A stretch of DNA of 64,000 nucleotides from Bacilli bacterium (GTDB taxonomy: Bacteria; Bacillota_I; Bacilli_A; RF39; UBA660). Where the stretch lies: NCBI GenBank assembly GCA_017542465.1, contig JAFXXB010000020.1:10329-74328 (forward strand), in the 5' to 3' direction. Both the position numbers and the translations under genes were made by a program. The number at the start of each line of letters is the position of its first letter. The stretch's first letter is position 1. This document shows, in pieces, positions 9,070 to 21,651 of the stretch. The notes under the pieces were generated by a model, which saw nothing but the letters and a program-made list of their open reading frames with translations, was not told the DNA's origin and searched no databases.

Positions 9070-9136
9070 ATATTCATCTCCTAATAAAATTATAACATAA
9101 AAAAATAAAAGCAAGATATCTTGCTTATTAATTATT

Positions 9137-9667
9137 TTATATTTTTAGTAATACTCTAAATCCTCTATTTGAATAATATGATTCAGCACCATTATGATAT
9201 ATAAAAGTCCTATTATATTTTTTATCACCAAATAATGCTCCACCCAATTTCCTAATTTCCTTTGGAGTTAATATCCAGCTTGAAGATTTTAAATCAAAAT
9301 CTCCAAGTGATTGAAGATATTTATATTCTATTTCATCTAATACTTTTACCTTATTATTATTTGCTTCTGTTATAATGTCCGAATTTGGTTTATTACTTTT
9401 TCTACTATTCAAAGCATCTATATCATAACAAAAACTTCTTCTTCCAATGGGAGATTCTATTGAAGTATCACAATAAACATACTTATCATTTTCTTTATCA
9501 TACATTATAACATCTGGTTCTCCACCTGTTTCTTCCATATATCTTAAAGAAAATAATGCTTCATTATTTAGTCTTTTAAAAACATCATTCCAATTAATTC
9601 CTTTATGCATAATTTCATTTTTAATAAATCTTTTTTCTAAAATTGATATTAATTCCTCATTACTCAT
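9137..9667 (-). CDS. DUF4256 family protein
   Basis: MEETGGEPDV, ESPIGRRSFCYD, IRKLGGALFGD, HNGAESYYSNRGFR motifs. Confidence 0.85.
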   Translation of the reverse strand: MSNEELISILEKRFIKNEIMHKGINWNDVFKRLNNEALFSLRYMEETGGEPDVIMYDKENDKYVYCDTSIESPIGRRSFCYDIDALNSRKSNKPNSDIITEANNNKVKVLDEIEYKYLQSLGDFDLKSSSWILTPKEIRKLGGALFGDKKYNRTFIYHNGAESYYSNRGFRVLLKI

Positions 9668-9731
9668 ATTACACCTCATAATAGTTTATTATTACTTAAA
9701 ATTATACCATAATCTTTAAAAATATAAATAA

Positions 9732-9753
9732 TCGCAATATTACTATTTTCCGA
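9732..9753. repeat. Cassette-boundary site A1 (8-6-8 quasi-palindrome)
   Basis: TCGCAATA-TTACTA-TTTTCCGA, upstream of the DUF4256 promoter. Confidence 0.7.
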
Positions 9754-9897
9754 ACATACAAAAAAGACTAGATTTCCTAGTCTTATTTATTTAATTACTT
9801 ATTGTTTTTTTGCTTTGATTGTGGCTTGAGATTACACCCAACTAAAAGCTCCAAATCCTACGAGTTTCCGTATTGTTTTTGACTAAATATTTATTAA

Positions 9898-9919
9898 TCG
9901 GAATATCCTAATCTTACGA
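9898..9919. repeat. Cassette-boundary site B1
   Basis: TCGGAATA-TCCTAA-TCTTACGA, 6 nt beyond the hydrolase stop codon. Confidence 0.7.
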
Positions 9920-9925
9920 TGCATT

Positions 9926-10915
9926 TTATTTTAAATAATCTTTTAAAAATTTTTCTATCTTATCAAATGGTATTTTATCTTTTTGATCATATAAATCTGT
10001 ATGAGTTGCTCCTGGTATAACTACTAATTCTTTATTGCTAGTATATTTAGAATCTTTAATCATATTATCATAAGCATCTTTTCCCATATAAAATGAATGA
10101 GCTTTATCTCCATGAACAATCATTACAGCACTTCTAATCTCATTAGAATAATGTAATAATCTTACATTCATCATTGAAGTACTAGATTGTATTGCCCAAC
10201 CTCCATTTGAATTTAAACTTCTCTTATGATATCCTCTTGGAGTTTTATAATATGCATGATAACCTTGTAAGAATTCAGGAGCATTTTCTGGTAACGGATC
10301 GATTACTCCACCAGCTAGAGCATATTCTCCATTCTTATAATCTTCATTTCTTTGATTGTTTAAATTAACTCTTTGTTGGTATCTTGCTTCTTCATTATCT
10401 TGTTCGTCAAAATATCCATTTCCAGCAACTCTAGACATATCATACATAGTTGATACGATAGTAGCTTTTATTCTTGTATCAATACATGCAGTTTGAAGCG
10501 CCATTCCACCCCAACCACAAATACCTATAATTCCAATACGCTCAGAATCAACATTATCTAAACTAATTAGATAATCTACTGCTGATTGAAAATCTTCTAC
10601 ATTGATGTCAAAAGATGTCATATATCTTGGTTCTCCACCTGATTCACCAGTAAACGATGGATCAAATGCAATTGTTAAGAATCCTCTTTCAGCCATTTCT
10701 TGAGCATATAATCCACTTGACTGCTCTTTTACTGCTCCATAAGGACCACTTACAGCTAAAGCTGGTAGTTTACCTTCATAATCTTTTGGCTCATACATAT
10801 CAGCTGCTAATGTAATGCCAAAATGATTTTTAAATGTTACTTTTTTGTGATTTACTTTATCACTTTGAGGGAATACTTTATCCCATTCTTGAACTAAATT
10901 TAATTCTTCTTTCAT
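9926..10915 (-). CDS. Alpha/beta hydrolase (YcjY-like)
   Basis: FTGESGGEPR, GICGWGG nucleophile elbow, ATHTDLYD; AGGAGG RBS. Confidence 0.88.
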   Translation of the reverse strand: MKEELNLVQEWDKVFPQSDKVNHKKVTFKNHFGITLAADMYEPKDYEGKLPALAVSGPYGAVKEQSSGLYAQEMAERGFLTIAFDPSFTGESGGEPRYMTSFDINVEDFQSAVDYLISLDNVDSERIGIIGICGWGGMALQTACIDTRIKATIVSTMYDMSRVAGNGYFDEQDNEEARYQQRVNLNNQRNEDYKNGEYALAGGVIDPLPENAPEFLQGYHAYYKTPRGYHKRSLNSNGGWAIQSSTSMMNVRLLHYSNEIRSAVMIVHGDKAHSFYMGKDAYDNMIKDSKYTSNKELVVIPGATHTDLYDQKDKIPFDKIEKFLKDYLK

Positions 10916-10971
10916 CATATTCCTCCTAATTATCAATAAATATTATACCACAAATTATCAAACTATAATGT

Positions 10972-10993
10972 TCGCAATATTGCTATTTTACGA
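10972..10993. repeat. Cassette-boundary site A2
   Basis: TCGCAATA-TTGCTA-TTTTACGA. Confidence 0.75.
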
Positions 10994-11008
10994 TAAAAAA
11001 AGATGTAT

Positions 11009-11075
11009 TTAAACATCTTTTTTTCTAATATCAAAACTGTTTCAACATGCCTTGTATGCGGTCAACAAACATATC
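11009..11075 (-). pseudogene. Orphan copy of rlmD 3' end (att-like scar) with downstream terminator hairpin
   Basis: Minus strand GAT ATG TTT + GTTGA + CCG CAT ACA AGG CAT GTT GAA ACA GTT TTG ATA TTA GAA... = DMF/PHTRHVETVLILEK; matches the rlmD end DMFPNTYHVETVMVLERKDV; one base lost in the A-run. Confidence 0.85.
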
Positions 11076-11096
11076 ATAATATCTTATATCTTACAA
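11074..11096. repeat. Cassette-boundary site B2 (7-nt spacer variant)
   Basis: TCATAATA-TCTTATA-TCTTACAA, 5 nt beyond the CPBP stop codon. Confidence 0.6.
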
Positions 11097-11101
11097 TCAT
11101 T

Positions 11102-11749
11102 TTAGATTAAGAATAATGCTAAAACATCTGCTAAGAAATGTGGTATCCAACTACACCATGCATTATCTGTTTCTTTAAATACCAATCCAAATAATGATGA
11201 ATCAATAAATACAAATAATAAATCATATGCTACTATTATAAAACTTCCTGCACTATAATGTCCTAATGCAAATAATAAAGATGTTACAATTATTGATAGT
11301 ATATAATGTATTTTTTTAGAAGTTTGCTTTTGAAAAAATCCTCTCCATGCTATTTCTTCTCCCAAAGTAAGAACTGCCAATGTTAAAATAGTTCTCATTA
11401 AATCAGTTGATGTGGCAAAATTAATTCTATCTTTTAAATGATTATTGAATTCTGGAATGAATTTATTTGCAATTATAGTACATAGTATAACTGATATAAA
11501 TGGTAAGAATGCATATATAATTGACTTAGGATGATCTTTAAAATCTTTAAATATAGTTTTAATATTTAATCCTTCATCTTTCGTTTTATTTGCTTTTCTA
11601 GTAACAAAGAAAGCAACTACTCCAACAATAACTGAAATACCAGAAAGTTTTAACACTTCTCCATCAATTTTAATATTCAATAAATTTGTTAATGATAATA
11701 TAGCAATTACTATTAAAAATATTACTACACTTTTATTCCCTTTATTCAT
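11102..11749 (-). CDS. CPBP/Abi (CAAX-protease-like) intramembrane protease
   Basis: GEEIAWRGF, LLFALGH, PHFLAD motifs; start at Met 11749 behind GAGGAG. Confidence 0.88.
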   Translation of the reverse strand: MNKGNKSVVIFLIVIAILSLTNLLNIKIDGEVLKLSGISVIVGVVAFFVTRKANKTKDEGLNIKTIFKDFKDHPKSIIYAFLPFISVILCTIIANKFIPEFNNHLKDRINFATSTDLMRTILTLAVLTLGEEIAWRGFFQKQTSKKIHYILSIIVTSLLFALGHYSAGSFIIVAYDLLFVFIDSSLFGLVFKETDNAWCSWIPHFLADVLALFLI

Positions 11750-11803
11750 TTTTTCAACTCCTCTATTAAACATTATACCACGAATTTTTAAAATTAAATT
11801 ACT

Positions 11804-11825
11804 TCGCAAGATTACTATATTGCGA
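11804..11825. repeat. Cassette-boundary site A3
   Basis: TCGCAAGA-TTACTA-TATTGCGA, the most symmetric copy. Confidence 0.75.
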
Positions 11826-11870
11826 TTAAATAAGTTTCGAATTTACAAAAAAACTTATCTAAAAACGTAT

Positions 11871-13316
11871 CTAAAGTTTTCCTATTTTCCGATTGCCGGG
11901 TTCAAATAAATCTATGTCTTCTATGTTAATGTCACTCATGTTAAATGATTTAAAGAAATTACTTCGTATTCCATTTAAAAGATCTTCTACAGCAATATTA
12001 TCTTCCCATGTAGGATTTAGTTCATTTTTTATACCACTTGGCCAGTCATATAAATGAAACCCACCGTTTTCTCCAATTCCCCATCTTCCATGTACAAATG
12101 CATTTCTAATCCTATTTACAGGCAATATTTTCTCACCACACTCAAAGTTTTCTTGAGAATCAACTGTTCTAAAATAAAAACTAGCTAGAAGAGCTATATT
12201 ATTCATATTTCTAGCCTCTAAATCCGATATATATTTTAAAATCAAATTAATTGTATCTGTATTATTTCCAAAACTATCATATAATAAATTTCCAGTTTGT
12301 TTTTTTCCATAATTACGCATATATTCATCTACTTTTCTTTGCATATATAAATTATATTCACTATTTGAATTATCCCAGTTGGATATAAAATTATCATAAA
12401 TAAGTATGTTTTCATTTTGATTAAATGCAGCTTTATATATTCCAATTGGCAATATTATTCTCATATAATAGATAATAAAATCAGTTAATAGTTTTCCATT
12501 CGATAAAACATCCGTGCGGCCTGCTATTTCTTTAAATTTTCTAAGCATTTCTTTTTTTTGCGTTTTTGTTAATTCATGTACTACTTTTTCAGCACCAAAT
12601 TGATTGGCTTTTTCTAACATTATTTTTTGAAAATTATTACTATCTACTCTAGATAAAGCAGCCTTATATTCCAAAGAATTCCCATCAACTATCTTTTGCG
12701 TATATAAAAATCTCACATAATTAAATCTGTCAAAAAAGGAAGACAAATCGTTTGGATCTATATCTTTTGAGTTATCTATTTCCATACCTGTTGTTGAATA
12801 TGTACTAGATGAAAGATTAATATATTTTACTAAAATTTCAATATCATTTTTGGGAATTATTAAGTTTAATGGCTTAGGTTTTGTTCCTTTCATGTCAATT
12901 ATTATATACTGTCCATCTTTTGTGATTTTATATAATTCATTAATATTACTATGAGAAAAAGCATCTCTTAAAAATTTCAAAATATTTTTCCCGCTAAAAA
13001 TTTTTTTGTCTTTTTTATCAACAAACCATCTTTCTGGTATTTCTATATTTTTGGCTTCTATATAATCAAAAACTTCATCTTTCGTTAAAGAAAATGCATC
13101 TATATATCTTAAAATTGAAATAATATTTATCATTTTGTCATAGTTCTCTTTTGTTGCTTTTGGACCATTTTTTAAACTCCTATTTAATTCATTTAAAGTT
13201 CTTATATAATTTGTCTTGTATGTATCCTGAGGAAACCTTGAATTCATATCAAGAAAGTATGTATTTAATATTAAATATAATATTATATCTGCTTTGTTTA
13301 AAGTCTTCTCCTCCAT
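11871..13316 (-). CDS. Hypothetical protein with two HEPN-like RxxxxH motifs
   Basis: LRDAFSH and IRNAFVHG, each followed by a short beta-hairpin-like stretch; own promoter, RBS and terminator. Confidence 0.6.
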   Translation of the reverse strand: MEEKTLNKADIILYLILNTYFLDMNSRFPQDTYKTNYIRTLNELNRSLKNGPKATKENYDKMINIISILRYIDAFSLTKDEVFDYIEAKNIEIPERWFVDKKDKKIFSGKNILKFLRDAFSHSNINELYKITKDGQYIIIDMKGTKPKPLNLIIPKNDIEILVKYINLSSSTYSTTGMEIDNSKDIDPNDLSSFFDRFNYVRFLYTQKIVDGNSLEYKAALSRVDSNNFQKIMLEKANQFGAEKVVHELTKTQKKEMLRKFKEIAGRTDVLSNGKLLTDFIIYYMRIILPIGIYKAAFNQNENILIYDNFISNWDNSNSEYNLYMQRKVDEYMRNYGKKQTGNLLYDSFGNNTDTINLILKYISDLEARNMNNIALLASFYFRTVDSQENFECGEKILPVNRIRNAFVHGRWGIGENGGFHLYDWPSGIKNELNPTWEDNIAVEDLLNGIRSNFFKSFNMSDINIEDIDLFEPGNRKIGKL

Positions 13317-13368
13317 TATATCAACTCCTATAATTAATTATAACATAAAAGAACGAATTCTCATCCGT

Positions 13369-13390
13369 TCTATATATCTTAATATTACGA
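13369..13390. repeat. Cassette-boundary site B4 (left arm degenerate)
   Basis: TCTATATA-TCTTAA-TATTACGA, 5 nt beyond the GNAT stop codon; spacer identical to B3. Confidence 0.55.
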
Positions 13391-13395
13391 TTACT

Positions 13396-14139
13396 TTATT
13401 TAATTAATTTTTCAAATGCATTTGCATTTAATATTGTATTTGAAACAAATTTACCTTTATAAAAGTTTGCCCAGTTATTAAATACACATGGAGCATTCTT
13501 TGCTTTCTCTAATGAGTCTATTTTTATAAAGTTTAACTTAATTTCCTTATCTTTTGCATAATCAGATAATTCTTTTACTTCATATTCTACATATGGGCAT
13601 TCATTAGAATAGTAAATAGTGAAATCTTGACTATCTATTTCCATCTTACGAGCACTATCACTAAATTTAGGTGTTTCTTTATCATCAAATTGTAATGCCA
13701 TTAATTCATAATCATTAATTGTATCTACTACTTTAAATCCATAGTGTTCAAAGAACTTCTTATCTCCAATAAATGGTTTCTTCTTTTGTGATACTAATGT
13801 ACATATACCACTCATTTTTTTCTTTTTAGCATCTTCAATAGCATATTCTAATAATTCTTTACCAATACCTTTTCCTTTAAAACTACCAGCAACCCATAAA
13901 CAGTAAATATGCATATAATTTTTACCGTTAATAGGAACCCAAGCTGTTTCTATTGGTTCATATTCAATAAAGATTTTACCTCTTGCATTTAGCTTTCTAA
14001 ATACATGACCATCCTTTATTTTACTTTTAATCCATTCTTTCTTTTTATCAACACCATCTTGATGTTTAGGATCTCCTATAGCACAACAAATATGCTCTTC
14101 ATCAATATTCTTTTCATCTAAATTAATGTACTCATTCAT
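13396..14139 (-). CDS. GNAT N-acetyltransferase with C-terminal YoaP domain
   Basis: EEHICCAI, FIEYEPIETAW, CLWVAGSFKGKGIGKELL, CPY...APCVFNNW. Confidence 0.88.
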   Translation of the reverse strand: MNEYINLDEKNIDEEHICCAIGDPKHQDGVDKKKEWIKSKIKDGHVFRKLNARGKIFIEYEPIETAWVPINGKNYMHIYCLWVAGSFKGKGIGKELLEYAIEDAKKKKMSGICTLVSQKKKPFIGDKKFFEHYGFKVVDTINDYELMALQFDDKETPKFSDSARKMEIDSQDFTIYYSNECPYVEYEVKELSDYAKDKEIKLNFIKIDSLEKAKNAPCVFNNWANFYKGKFVSNTILNANAFEKLIK

Positions 14140-14199
14140 ACTCACACCTCTATATTCATTATAGCACAAATTTTTACTATTTTTTTCTTACTTGCTTCT

Positions 14200-14221
14200 T
14201 CGGAATACTACTATTTTACGA
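14200..14221. repeat. Cassette-boundary site A4
   Basis: TCGGAATA-CTACTA-TTTTACGA, identical to A5. Confidence 0.8.
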
Positions 14222-14236
14222 TTAAAAAGATGTCTT

Positions 14237-14304
14237 TTAAACATCTTTCTTTTCTAAAACCATAAGGCTTTCAACATGCCTAGTATGCGGTCAACGAACA
14301 TATC
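14237..14304 (-). pseudogene. Orphan copy of rlmD 3' end (att-like scar) with downstream terminator hairpin
   Basis: Minus strand GAT ATG TTC + GTTGA + CCG CAT ACT AGG CAT GTT GAA AGC CTT ATG GTT TTA GAA AAG AAA GAT GTT TAA = DMF/PHTRHVESLMVLEKKDV*. Confidence 0.88.
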
Positions 14305-14324
14305 GTAATATCTTAATCTTGCGA
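14303..14324. repeat. Cassette-boundary site B3
   Basis: TCGTAATA-TCTTAA-TCTTGCGA; its reverse complement matches A3 at 19/22. Confidence 0.75.
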
Positions 14325-14332
14325 TTATTCTA

Positions 14333-15088
14333 TTAATTAAAAATCTTTTTCTTATTATTTATTTTAACTAGAACTAGTGACATTATTACTAATATAATTG
14401 ATGTTACTAAACTACCAATAATATTTTCATTAATTATATATATACCACTTAATGAATTTACAATACAATGAAATAATACACATAAACATACACTATTAGT
14501 ATTTTTTCTAATACTTGCTAAAGCAAAAGCTAAACCTAATACACTTATACCAAAAGCAAAATAGTTTTGTCCATATTGGGCAACTCCTTGAATAAAGAAT
14601 AAAGGTAAATGCCATATCCACCATATAACACTGACAACTAATGTTGATAAAAGAAAATTATGTTTCTTTTCTAATTCAGATTGTAAAATATATCTCCATC
14701 CAGCTTCTTCTAATCCACCACCAATTAACATTATGGGTATCATAAGAACAATTGCATATAAAGGAAAACCACTTTCATATCCTGAAATAAATATTTGAGG
14801 TAAAATATATACTACACCTAAAAATATCACCATTAAATAGGATAATAGATTATGTTTGAAATCAAAAATATGTTTAACCCAATCTTTAAATCCTTTAATT
14901 TGCTTGTTTTTCTTTAGTGATATATAAGAAGCAATAGTTGGAGACCAGCCTCCAATCAAATATGGAACATATAATAATAGATTATCTTTTAATATAATTC
15001 CATTTATACTGCAAACTATTAATGTTCCCCAACAAATAATCATTATTAAAAATGTAATTGATAAATAATCTTTAATTAATTTATTCAT
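14333..15088 (-). CDS. CPBP/Abi intramembrane protease
   Basis: GGGLEEAGWRY, WWIWHLPLF, CVLFHCIVN motifs. Confidence 0.88.
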   Translation of the reverse strand: MNKLIKDYLSITFLIMIICWGTLIVCSINGIILKDNLLLYVPYLIGGWSPTIASYISLKKNKQIKGFKDWVKHIFDFKHNLLSYLMVIFLGVVYILPQIFISGYESGFPLYAIVLMIPIMLIGGGLEEAGWRYILQSELEKKHNFLLSTLVVSVIWWIWHLPLFFIQGVAQYGQNYFAFGISVLGLAFALASIRKNTNSVCLCVLFHCIVNSLSGIYIINENIIGSLVTSIILVIMSLVLVKINNKKKIFN

Positions 15089-15140
15089 ATAATCAACTCC
15101 TTCTAATATATTATATCATTCTTTTTATCTTTCTTGCTCA

Positions 15141-15162
15141 TCGGAATACTACTATTTTACGA
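15141..15162. repeat. Cassette-boundary site A5, just beyond the rlmD terminator
   Basis: TCGGAATA-CTACTA-TTTTACGA. Confidence 0.8.
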
Positions 15163-15179: not shown

Positions 15180-16376
15180 TTAAACATCTTTCCTTTCTAA
15201 AACCATAACTGTTTCCACATGATATGTATTAGGAAACATATCAAGACCATATATCTTTTTAATATTATAATGTTCTTTTAATATATTTATATCTCTAGCT
15301 AATGTCATTGGATCACATGATACATATCCAATCATATTAGGTTTAATCTTAATTATATCTTTAATAGTTTTATCATTTAATCCTGATCTAGGTGGATCAA
15401 CAATAATAATATCTATCTTGTCATTTATTTTATTTAACATAACTGATGTATCATCAGCATAATATTTATAATCTTTAACACCATTTAATTTAGCATTATC
15501 ATTTGCATCTTTAATAGCATTAGCTATCTTCTCTATGCCTATTATTTTTTTAACCTTATCTTTCATAGATATTCCCATTACACCTGAACCACAGTAAAGG
15601 TCTAATAAAGTATTACCTTCTAAATAATTATTTAATATCTTAAATATTTCATTAGCAATATAATTATTTATTTGAAAGAATGAATTATATGATACTTTAA
15701 AATTATAATCACCTATTTTATCTTTAAAATATGATTCACCATATACTACTTTATCATTAATGATTATACCTACAATATTCTCAGGTATATCATCATGTAA
15801 TTCATATTTACTAGTGTTAATAACTAATAAGATATCATCATTATAATTAGTTCTTATAGTTATATCTCCATCATATATATAAATAAAACTATGATTACCT
15901 ATTATCTCATTAATTGTATTGTTAGCAAGTAAACATCTATTAATATATACATCATCATGGGAATCTTTATTGTAATAAGAAAACTTATTCTTATTAACTC
16001 TTAAAGTTATCTTATTTCTATAGAATAAATCTTTATTAGATTCTATTAGTTTAATCTCAGTATCAATACCAGCATATTTAAATAATATATCTTTTAATCT
16101 ATTCTTCTTAAATTCCATTTGTTTATCAAATGGCATATGCATTAAAGTACATCCACCACATTCATTTATATAAGGACACTTAGGTTGTATTCTATCTTGT
16201 GATGATTTAATAATATTTATAACTTTAGCTAAATAATATTTAGATGTCTCTTTAATAATTTCTACTTCTACTTCTTCATCTATTAATGCATTATAAACAA
16301 ATACTATCTTATTATTATAGTATGAAATACCTCTACCTTGATTATCAATTTTATTAATTGTTAGTTTTGTATGCAT
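15180..16376 (-). CDS. rlmD: 23S rRNA (uracil-C5)-methyltransferase RlmD/RumA
   Basis: TRAM domain, CPYINECGGC Fe-S motif, SFFQIN, DLYCGSG, VDPPRSG, YVSCDP, DMFPNTYHVE. Confidence 0.93.
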   Translation of the reverse strand: MHTKLTINKIDNQGRGISYYNNKIVFVYNALIDEEVEVEIIKETSKYYLAKVINIIKSSQDRIQPKCPYINECGGCTLMHMPFDKQMEFKKNRLKDILFKYAGIDTEIKLIESNKDLFYRNKITLRVNKNKFSYYNKDSHDDVYINRCLLANNTINEIIGNHSFIYIYDGDITIRTNYNDDILLVINTSKYELHDDIPENIVGIIINDKVVYGESYFKDKIGDYNFKVSYNSFFQINNYIANEIFKILNNYLEGNTLLDLYCGSGVMGISMKDKVKKIIGIEKIANAIKDANDNAKLNGVKDYKYYADDTSVMLNKINDKIDIIIVDPPRSGLNDKTIKDIIKIKPNMIGYVSCDPMTLARDINILKEHYNIKKIYGLDMFPNTYHVETVMVLERKDV

Positions 16377-20415: not shown

Positions 20416-21651
20416 TTATCTTGATGTATTTTTAACATATTCACTTGGAGTATTTACTACACCAGTAAATAATAAAGTATTGTTTTTCTTATCTCTTATC
20501 ATATATAAGAAAGGTTTGTTGAAAGATATATTAATTATATCATATTCTTCTCTTATTGCAGTTGCTTTATCTAATCCAAAATAAGTAACAGCTGCAGCTT
20601 TAGTTCCCTTTTCATTTAAATCTATATATGTTTTGTGAATAGCTGTTGATACATATAGATTTTCTATACCAACCTTCTTCATATAATTTCTAGCAATAAT
20701 ATTTGTAAAATCTGCATTCTTTTCATCAAAAGCATCAGTCATGCCCATGTCCTTTAACATTTCCATAAATTTATTATAATCATATGAATAAGAGAACTTA
20801 GGTAAACCTAAATTAATATGTAGACTTCTACTAGAAGATCTTTTACTTTCTTCTAATGTTTCAAATTCTTTCTTATCTAACTTTTTAATATATTCATCAA
20901 TATTTTCATCTGGCATTATTGCTATGAATTCAAGATTTGTATCATCCTTATATGGAATAATAATTCCTTGAGCTTTTTTAGACTTAATATAATATGCTCC
21001 ATCATCAGATTCATAACTATTATGCATCATATTAACATTCATCTTTGTTCCATCTTTTTTAGTGAACTCTGCATTTCTAGTTGCTGCTCCATCAAATGGT
21101 TGTTTCCATTCAACATCTATAGCGATAGCATTAGCTAAACCTAAAACAAAATCTTTACTTATATCATTTAATAAAGTTGGTATCATTCCATCAGTTTTTT
21201 CATTAACCCATTTATTAATTACTTCTGGAGTATCGAACTTATCATATAATAATTCAGCTTTATGATTATCTTTTAATAATTTAACATAGTTATTTTCTAT
21301 AACATCTTTGTATTGATCTTTTATAAATACACCATTTGCATCTTTAACTGAATTGTTATTAATAGCTTTTGTGTTATTTCCAATTAACTTTTCAATTTGG
21401 GCTTTTGTGTTTCCACTTGCTCCATCTTTTAACATAGCCATTGCTTGTTCCATTGAATATGGTGAAACTAAATAATTATCATTATTCTTTTCATTAGTTC
21501 TTTTTAATACTTCAAGATTAAAATCACTTTCAATAATTACTGTTCTTTCATGTTTATTATATTTATTCATTATAAATAAGTATAAAACAAGTGTTATTAC
21601 AGTTATAATAAGAAATACACTACAAATAAAAACTACTTTATTGTTTCTCAT
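20416..21651 (-). CDS. Membrane-anchored serpin (serine protease inhibitor)
   Basis: N-terminal TM; NYLVSPYS, INKWVNEKTDGMI, hinge EKGTKAAAVT, FNKPFLYMIRD. Confidence 0.92.
   Translation of the reverse strand: MRNNKVVFICSVFLIITVITLVLYLFIMNKYNKHERTVIIESDFNLEVLKRTNEKNNDNYLVSPYSMEQAMAMLKDGASGNTKAQIEKLIGNNTKAINNNSVKDANGVFIKDQYKDVIENNYVKLLKDNHKAELLYDKFDTPEVINKWVNEKTDGMIPTLLNDISKDFVLGLANAIAIDVEWKQPFDGAATRNAEFTKKDGTKMNVNMMHNSYESDDGAYYIKSKKAQGIIIPYKDDTNLEFIAIMPDENIDEYIKKLDKKEFETLEESKRSSSRSLHINLGLPKFSYSYDYNKFMEMLKDMGMTDAFDEKNADFTNIIARNYMKKVGIENLYVSTAIHKTYIDLNEKGTKAAAVTYFGLDKATAIREEYDIINISFNKPFLYMIRDKKNNTLLFTGVVNTPSEYVKNTSR

Follow-up and report, generated by a model that had tools for sequence, protein, structure and literature searches.

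Introduction

Cassette systems are major routes for trading single adaptive genes, and two of them, the integrons and the dif modules of Acinetobacter, are to our knowledge known almost only from Proteobacteria. The Acinetobacter (pdif) modules are short, often carry one gene, and lie between two-arm sites of about 22-28 bp. Their neighbouring sites are inverted, two module types set by the inward-facing half-sites alternate, and no recombinase is encoded in cis. Integrons, and the clusters of attC sites lacking integron-integrases (CALINs), hold stacks of diverse, mostly single-gene cassettes that share one orientation and a fixed docking point, and CALINs lack an integrase near the array. 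These are the closest known systems to a locus described here from a Bacilli bacterium of the RF39 lineage UBA660 (assembly GCA_017542465.1). The stretch analysed, hereafter the window, comprises 64,000 nucleotides of contig JAFXXB010000020.1 (positions 10,329 to 74,328, forward strand). All of the traits just listed recur at this locus, and the shuffling of pdif modules between replicons has a comparable counterpart here, although defining features of both systems were looked for and not found. We propose that a chromosomal array of mobile gene modules occupies this region, next to a rumA-type rRNA methyltransferase gene, and that each module lies between two heterospecific 22-bp sites (A and B).

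The finding points to an equivalent cassette system in uncultured Bacilli with reduced genomes from the guts of ruminants and humans. Site classes that do not cross-react, and thereby fix orientation, would be the natural counterpart of engineered cassette exchange. The 22-bp motif can also be used to find such arrays in metagenomes.

Two classes of site

Nine 22-bp sites lie within 9732-15162 (Table 1), where a first-pass annotation made from the DNA letters alone had placed them, and with the spacers that it gave. The strict order A,B,A,B,A,B,A,B,A that it described is also confirmed; for five A and four B sites the chance of such alternation is 1/126. Seven of the nine fit TCGNAANA-N6-TNTTNCGA perfectly, the exceptions being B3 (13369) and B2 (11074). 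A scan of the window allowing up to two mismatches returned 8 matches where 2.05 were expected, a number reached by 0 of 100 shuffles, and in the 1.09-Mb, 46-contig assembly the perfect motif occurs at this locus only (reversed-pattern control, 0). A looser scan of the assembly identified one further good A-like site, TCGTAAGTTAGTAATATTACGA, at C11:93895, outside the window. It is solitary, is followed about 40 nt downstream by a -10 box and then by a gene for a 205-amino-acid protein, and is possibly a lone cassette elsewhere in the same genome.

The sites form two classes, A (TCGNAANA-TTACTA-TNTTNCGA) and B (TCGNAATA-TCTTAA-TNTTNCGA). Position tables built from about 145 distinct perfect sites give TCGNAA[T]A-TTACTA-T[T]TTNCGA for A and TCG[T]AATA-TCTTAA-T[C]TT[C]CGA for B. 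Both classes have the inverted 9-bp arms TCGNAANAT and ATNTTNCGA; they differ in an asymmetric core, TACT in A and CTTA in B. When the central dinucleotide was left free (four combinations), only CT and AG occurred in 301 family genomes. Class A and reverse-complemented class B have one half in common (TCGNAA[T/G]ATTA), and the other half is consistently different. In gene cassettes the common half faces inward at both ends, and in linkers the other halves face inward.

The first-pass annotation had taken A and B for a single site in opposite orientations, citing TCGCAAGA-TTAAGA-TATTACGA as the reverse complement of B3. That sequence does match A3 at 19 of 22 positions, but it is the reverse complement of B4 (14303). 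The single-site view itself has to be given up: more than 180 sites fall into two discrete classes (TACT and CTTA), and polarity is fixed, with A 5' and B 3' in 46/46 modules bounded by the two and the longest open reading frame (ORF) running from the A end to the B end in every one.

Carriers of the motif number 14 among 61 relatives. Both classes are found in 29/301 family genomes, across 26/214 genera (reversed-pattern control, 0). The A/B modules have a median length of 836 bp, and their 66 ORFs fall into 57 clusters. The distance from B to A varies between 38 bp and about 1.9 kb, and some of these intervals hold whole genes. The cargo includes acetyltransferases, beta-lactamase-fold and ABC-F-like proteins, CPBP immunity-type proteases, hydrolases and regulators.

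Other genomes (L176, G175:C1, 4018-9108; L177, G167:C3, 4725-5449) have cassettes bounded by further core classes with the same arms, namely CAAA/TTTG and, with a 7-nt spacer, TATTT. The CPBP gene in one of these cassettes is 77% identical to the one in the window.

Shared cassettes and breakpoints within sites

Four cassettes of the window were found elsewhere at 92-97% nucleotide identity, singly and in unrelated flanks. The GNAT acetyltransferase cassette is 89-92% identical at the nucleotide level in L004, L005 and L007. It is common to L005, L022, L039 and L126 (about 92% identity among themselves), and its protein has 98% amino acid identity in a genome of another genus (G282). The rumA that flanks the array in L005 is only 78% (nucleotide) and 72% (amino acid) identical to that of the window. 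The hydrolase cassette matches at 97.4% over 1067 bp in a roe-deer gut metagenome-assembled genome (MAG; L024), with homology beginning at the B site. A 95% copy of the second CPBP cassette (cassette 4) lies in a different context in L081, and a 92% copy of the DUF4256 cassette adjoins an A site in G006 (L006).

The ends of the shared DNA lie in the sites. Over all loci, 186 of 400 internal homology endpoints fall within about 100 bp around a site, against about 2% expected. Within a site, starts cluster at positions 1 and 5 and ends at positions 18 and 22, so shared DNA spans the conserved middle of the site and ends at the first position that varies in the far arm. One comparison captures a cassette replacement: L018 and L028 keep their flanks (99.8% and 92%) and carry different cassettes between B and A, with identity lost after TCGTAATATCTTAATA (B left arm plus spacer) and regained at TTACTATTTTCCGA (A spacer). 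Among 42 site pairs that share the backbone-side flank only, and that are not independent events, the backbone-side arm differs in at most 2/42 at any position. In the same pairs the cassette-side arm differs at N4 in 29/42 and at N7 in 12/42. A near-invariant backbone arm beside a variable cassette arm means that the exchange lies somewhere from about position 9 to position 16.

We conclude with high confidence that A and B are site-specific recombination sites bounding mobile modules. Cassettes shared across genera, homology breaks inside sites and the one cassette replacement bear out this part of the first-pass annotation. Its comparison with pdif architecture also stands, while its single flipped site, and its Xer enzyme as worded there, are not supported.

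Other comparisons were less informative. In the empty/occupied pair L073 and L007, divergence (70-77%) is too great for the junction to be read, and in strains with the identical rumA only the same array was found. Among metagenome relatives of this rumA, those that carry the A site are only about 72% identical, and their contigs stop soon after the site. No annotated plasmid or phage matched the array. Contigs from metagenomes frequently break off no more than about 200 bp from a site or from the 3' end of rumA (L137, L139, L140, L006 and many other contig loci), which would fit assembly graphs that branch at variable cassette arrays.

Proposed exchange reaction

We infer a scheme in which a recombinase supplied in trans would pair A with A and B with B and exchange strands inside the core. 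Because their cores differ, A could not recombine with B, and a gene would therefore keep its ends and its polarity. A circle with one A and one B could be inserted at, or excised from, any A or B site. Alternatively, two crossovers could swap a B-to-A segment, which would be recombinase-mediated cassette exchange in a natural form. In the array, gene cassettes (each with an A end, an apparent promoter of its own, a gene and a B end) alternate with backbone or linker modules (B to A), the latter carrying terminators and relics of earlier docking platforms. Judged from sequence comparison, modules are probably exchanged in this way, by conservative core recombination between heterospecific A and B sites with a recombinase provided in trans. 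That the enzyme is a trans-acting tyrosine recombinase, recombining like sites in their cores, we hold with moderate confidence.

Docking at rumA

A near-invariant block, present at seven loci of several genera, consists of the final rumA codons (…LEKKDV*), a hairpin that includes the stop codon, and an A site; the rumA proteins of these loci are only 37-72% identical. Array-free rumA genes have different ends and no A site. In the window the last codons (…LERKDV*) form the terminator hairpin, with A5 directly after it.

Several genomes (e.g., L039 and L046) hold relics of the rumA 3' end in their B-to-A intervals, some of them nested. Each relic begins with GATATGTTC directly behind the CGA of the B site and is joined to it at GA. 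The rumA gene is a hot spot for serine-recombinase elements, which insert at GA and leave a relic 3' end (PMC4120198). The first docking was thus probably by such an element, with A/B recombination building the array later.

Candidate recombinases

We favour a Xer-type tyrosine recombinase as the enzyme acting at A and B; a large serine recombinase is possible. XerD-like and XerC-like genes were identified in 36/36 relatives and are the only recombinases universal in the site-bearing ones. The dif site of these relatives, ACTTCATATAA-TATATA-TTATGTTAACT (left part ACTTCA(T/C)ATAA), is present as a single copy 1-4 kb from the xerD-like gene. Every relative, G002 and G005-G008 among them, has xerC, xerD and dif. 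All three are missing from this assembly, probably through one absent contig rather than real loss, and seeding the assembly with the dif sites of B. subtilis and E. coli and with difSL gave no convincing match.

A look-alike site occurs in Clostridia. In 12 genomes (Clostridia/Eubacterium MAGs; L016, L032, L045, L051, L060, L069, L093, L112, L118, L119, L122 and L130) a near-identical, perfect palindrome, ATTTCGCAAAA-TTAATA-TTTTGCGAAAT, is present as a single copy 60-100 bp upstream of a Xer-like gene; in one of the 12 the spacer is TTACTA. The gene adjoins radA and scores below the cut-offs for XerC, XerD, XerS and XerA. This single-copy site has the arms of A and B, and it lies close to its Xer-like gene as difSL lies close to xerS; palindrome and gene are a candidate for a new single-recombinase dif/Xer module of XerS/difSL type. 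This arrangement is not found in the window or its family, where sites are present in many copies with no such gene beside them, and the clostridial site is a single locus rather than a cassette boundary, unlike A and B. Fifteen predicted viral contigs carry one TAAT-core site each, with no recombinase in the stretch examined; they come from IMG/VR, are 30-62 kb long, lie within L179-L197 and are mostly from one dataset. They are possibly phages or phage-plasmids that borrow a host Xer-like enzyme. A site upstream of a Xer-like gene, with further copies on viral contigs, matches the pattern expected when mobile DNA exploits a Xer-type site.

Several observations weigh against the proposed exchange and its enzyme. 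The window encodes no recombinase gene, and neither PF00589 nor a genus-specific Xer hidden Markov model (HMM) identifies a tyrosine recombinase in the assembly, whose one large serine recombinase (C46:31184-32626, outside the window) is cut by the contig end. Censuses of PF00589 and PF00239 revealed no recombinase family that consistently co-occurs with the sites. The clostridial Xer-like enzyme has no orthologue in the family of the window, where its best match, at 38%, is an ordinary XerC/D, and the resemblance of its site to those of the array could be due to chance in a 596-Gb scan, for which a rough estimate is about 70 chance hits. The dependence among the 42 site pairs counts on the same side.

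Other enzymes encoded near sites were considered. AP2-type integrases with Mob_Pre relaxases are near sites in about 11 loci, and together with the large serine recombinases near other sites (below) they indicate that arrays also ride on integrative elements. Y2-type integrases with the Mob_Pre relaxase, and the third integrase of G006, were set aside as the linked enzyme, because neither consistently co-occurs with the sites. No extra tyrosine recombinase is common to the site-bearing genomes. The C46 serine recombinase belongs to the phage type and shares about 28-30% identity with the S3/S4 types.

It is unlikely, in our judgement, that a large serine recombinase (S1/S2) moves the cassettes, with A and B as attL/attR-like hybrids formed when circles insert at a short attB. 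Large serine recombinase genes are indeed enriched next to sites, with 16 loci having one at a distance of 8 kb or less. Some are directly flanked by a site: S2 genes are directly behind a B site in L074, L085 and L116, and for S1 genes a B site lies in front in L029 and an A site just behind in L004 and L024. One linker of the window is a relic of DNA downstream of an S1 gene, and the joining of every rumA relic to a B site at GA recalls the insertion of serine-recombinase elements described above. The plus-strand CT of A and of B is also offset by 2 bp, giving the 11+9 and 9+11 half-sites that hybrid sites would be expected to have. Yet the parents that this explanation predicts, a 20-bp attB (TCGNAANAT-CT-ATNTTNCGA) and a 24-bp attP (…TACTTA…), are absent from the loci examined and from the assembly, and neither form is among the matches listed from 301 family genomes. 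PF00239 is lacking in 9/34 site-bearing genomes, including the near-complete G006 and G032. Conservation is confined to 22 bp, short for att sites of this kind, and recombination of like with like is atypical of these enzymes.

Host XerC and XerD are quite unlikely to act on the sites as proposed for Acinetobacter pdif modules, which is how the first-pass annotation understood the locus. Their presence in all 36 relatives favours it, and the alternating modules match the architecture of dif modules (PMC13141974, PMC6449649). The dif comparison that the annotation suggested gives a different answer: A and B have no counterpart of the TTATGTTAA XerD arm and match the XerC arm at only about 4/8 specified positions. 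On the favourable side, the TCGNAA-A arm may bear a loose likeness to XerC-type arms. Whereas pdif sites closely copy dif, A and B do not, and two fixed cores with fixed gene polarity are not features of pdif. The claim that a chromosomal Xer-type enzyme acts here is therefore not supported in the form given, since the family dif differs from the sites and the assembly has no tyrosine recombinase.

We consider it very improbable that the palindromes are operators, terminator-associated repeats resembling repetitive extragenic palindromes (REPs) or bacterial interspersed mosaic elements (BIMEs), folded attC-like units or transposon inverted repeats: XRE-type helix-turn-helix genes are the commonest neighbours (22 loci), sites lie near promoters and terminators, and BIMEs too alternate in orientation, but ancestry breaks inside the sites, sites are at both gene ends, seven perfect copies (nine in all) sit at one locus rather than spread over the genome, the distribution is patchy and horizontal, and there are neither target-site duplications nor a transposase. 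Folding of a B-linker-A unit like attC was discarded on a reading of the sequence, given B-to-A intervals from 38 bp to gene size with whole genes inside and N4/N19 positions that do not pair.

Organization of the array

The features of the array are listed in Table 1. All of its genes are on the minus strand. In the direction of the genes, the order is rumA, terminator, A5, CPBP, B4, rumA relic and terminator, A4, GNAT/YoaP, B3, the 481-amino-acid protein, A3, the second CPBP, B2, the second rumA relic and terminator, A2, the alpha/beta hydrolase, B1, the relic of serine-recombinase-downstream DNA with its terminator, A1, DUF4256 and a terminator.

Table 1. Sites, cassettes and linker modules of the array, in gene direction (coordinates within the window)
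Feature	Coordinates	Strand	Sequence or basis
rumA/rlmD-type 23S rRNA (uracil-5) methyltransferase gene; docking platform	15180..16376	-	Pfam TRAM and tRNA_U5-meth_tr
Site A5	15141..15162	+	TCGGAATA-CTACTA-TTTTACGA
Cassette 1: CPBP/Rce1-like intramembrane protease (Abi-type)	14333..15088	-	Pfam PF02517
Site B4	14303..14324	+	TCGTAATA-TCTTAA-TCTTGCGA
Linker module: rumA 3'-end relic from DMF codons, with 5-nt insertion, and terminator hairpin	14222..14302	-	Sequence reading
Site A4	14200..14221	+	TCGGAATA-CTACTA-TTTTACGA
Cassette 2: GNAT acetyltransferase, YoaP-like C-terminus	13396..14169	-	Pfam
Site B3	13369..13390	+	TCTATATA-TCTTAA-TATTACGA; left arm degenerate, replaced by terminator hairpin 13350-13371
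481-amino-acid protein in a B-to-A module (position otherwise held by linkers)	11871..13316	-	
Site A3	11804..11825	+	TCGCAAGA-TTACTA-TATTGCGA
Cassette 4: second CPBP/Rce1-like protease	11102..11809	-	Pfam
Site B2	11074..11096	+	TCATAATA-TCTTATA-TCTTACAA; degenerate arms, 7-nt spacer
Linker module: second rumA 3'-end relic and terminator	10994..11073	-	Sequence; compared with other linkers
Site A2	10972..10993	+	TCGCAATA-TTGCTA-TTTTACGA
Cassette 5: alpha/beta hydrolase (Peptidase_S15/DLH-like)	9926..10936	-	Pfam
Site B1	9898..9919	+	TCGGAATA-TCCTAA-TCTTACGA
Linker module: relic of the segment downstream of an S1-type large serine recombinase	9754..9897	-	Terminator 9764-9784
Site A1	9732..9753	+	TCGCAATA-TTACTA-TTTTCCGA
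Cassette 6: DUF4256 protein	9137..9679	-	Pfam; then terminator 9109-9126

Terminator-like hairpins are enriched in the array region (7 against 1.1 expected), and each cassette appears to have a -10 promoter of its own. The 481-amino-acid protein has no Pfam match at E<=0.01, and its module has its own terminator and an extended -10 promoter. The junction of half a B site, a terminator and a -10 box seen at B3 is also present in L004 and L081. The TTG start listed for cassette 4 overlaps A3, and the true start is probably further inside the ORF. In L004, L029 and L056, DNA similar to the linker between B1 and A1 separates S1 recombinase genes from A sites. No recognisable B site follows the terminator of cassette 6.

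Outside the array, the window encodes a serpin-family protein of 411 amino acids (20416-21651, minus strand; PF00079 in the gene table of an identical contig), with a rhomboid protease gene on one side and a DUF5684 gene on the other. In a bacterium whose genome is about 1.1 Mb, a serpin gene is unusual cargo.

Comparison with known systems

The occurrence of the same cassettes in other genera makes this look like an undescribed cassette-exchange system. In the literature we found descriptions of pdif modules, integrons and rumA hot spots, and none of this system. We tentatively suggest a gene-cassette system of uncultured gut and rumen Bacilli, not previously described, that would be an analogue of integrons working by natural cassette exchange. 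Under this suggestion it would use TACT and CTTA cores (also TATTT and CAAA), be docked at rumA and on integrative elements, and depend on a recombinase not yet recognised as such.

The elements that insert at rumA (vanG and ICE-r; PMC4120198), and the staphylococcal cassette chromosome (SCC) at rlmH, likewise use the 3' end of an rRNA methyltransferase gene as their docking point, and there too accretion is in tandem, with relic gene 3' ends in between and junctions at GA. Those elements are 20-100 kb long and have their own recombinase, whereas the units here are about 0.4-4 kb, contain none and are bounded by A and B. The relics also differ, starting at the DMF codons here and at the 11th codon from the end in those elements.

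Compared with integrons, there is no IntI, attI and Pc platform (the PF00589 and Xer HMM searches of the assembly being negative). Nor are the sites attC, a 55-140-bp imperfect palindrome of R''-L''…L'-R' form with a GTTRRRY core; they are 22 bp long with TCG…CGA arms. In place of these features, the array has palindromes of double-stranded type, two site classes per cassette and apparent -10 promoters of each cassette's own. The single orientation of its diverse cassettes (46/46) is a trait that it shares with integron and CALIN arrays.

Compared with pdif modules, the alternation of two module types between inverted neighbouring sites is the same, but the sites do not resemble the dif of the relatives, having no XerD arm. 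The cores here are two or more, fixed and heterospecific, and gene polarity is strict. Whereas pdif modules belong to plasmids, these arrays are chromosomal, at the 3' end of rumA, or are carried on integrative elements of uncultured gut Bacilli.

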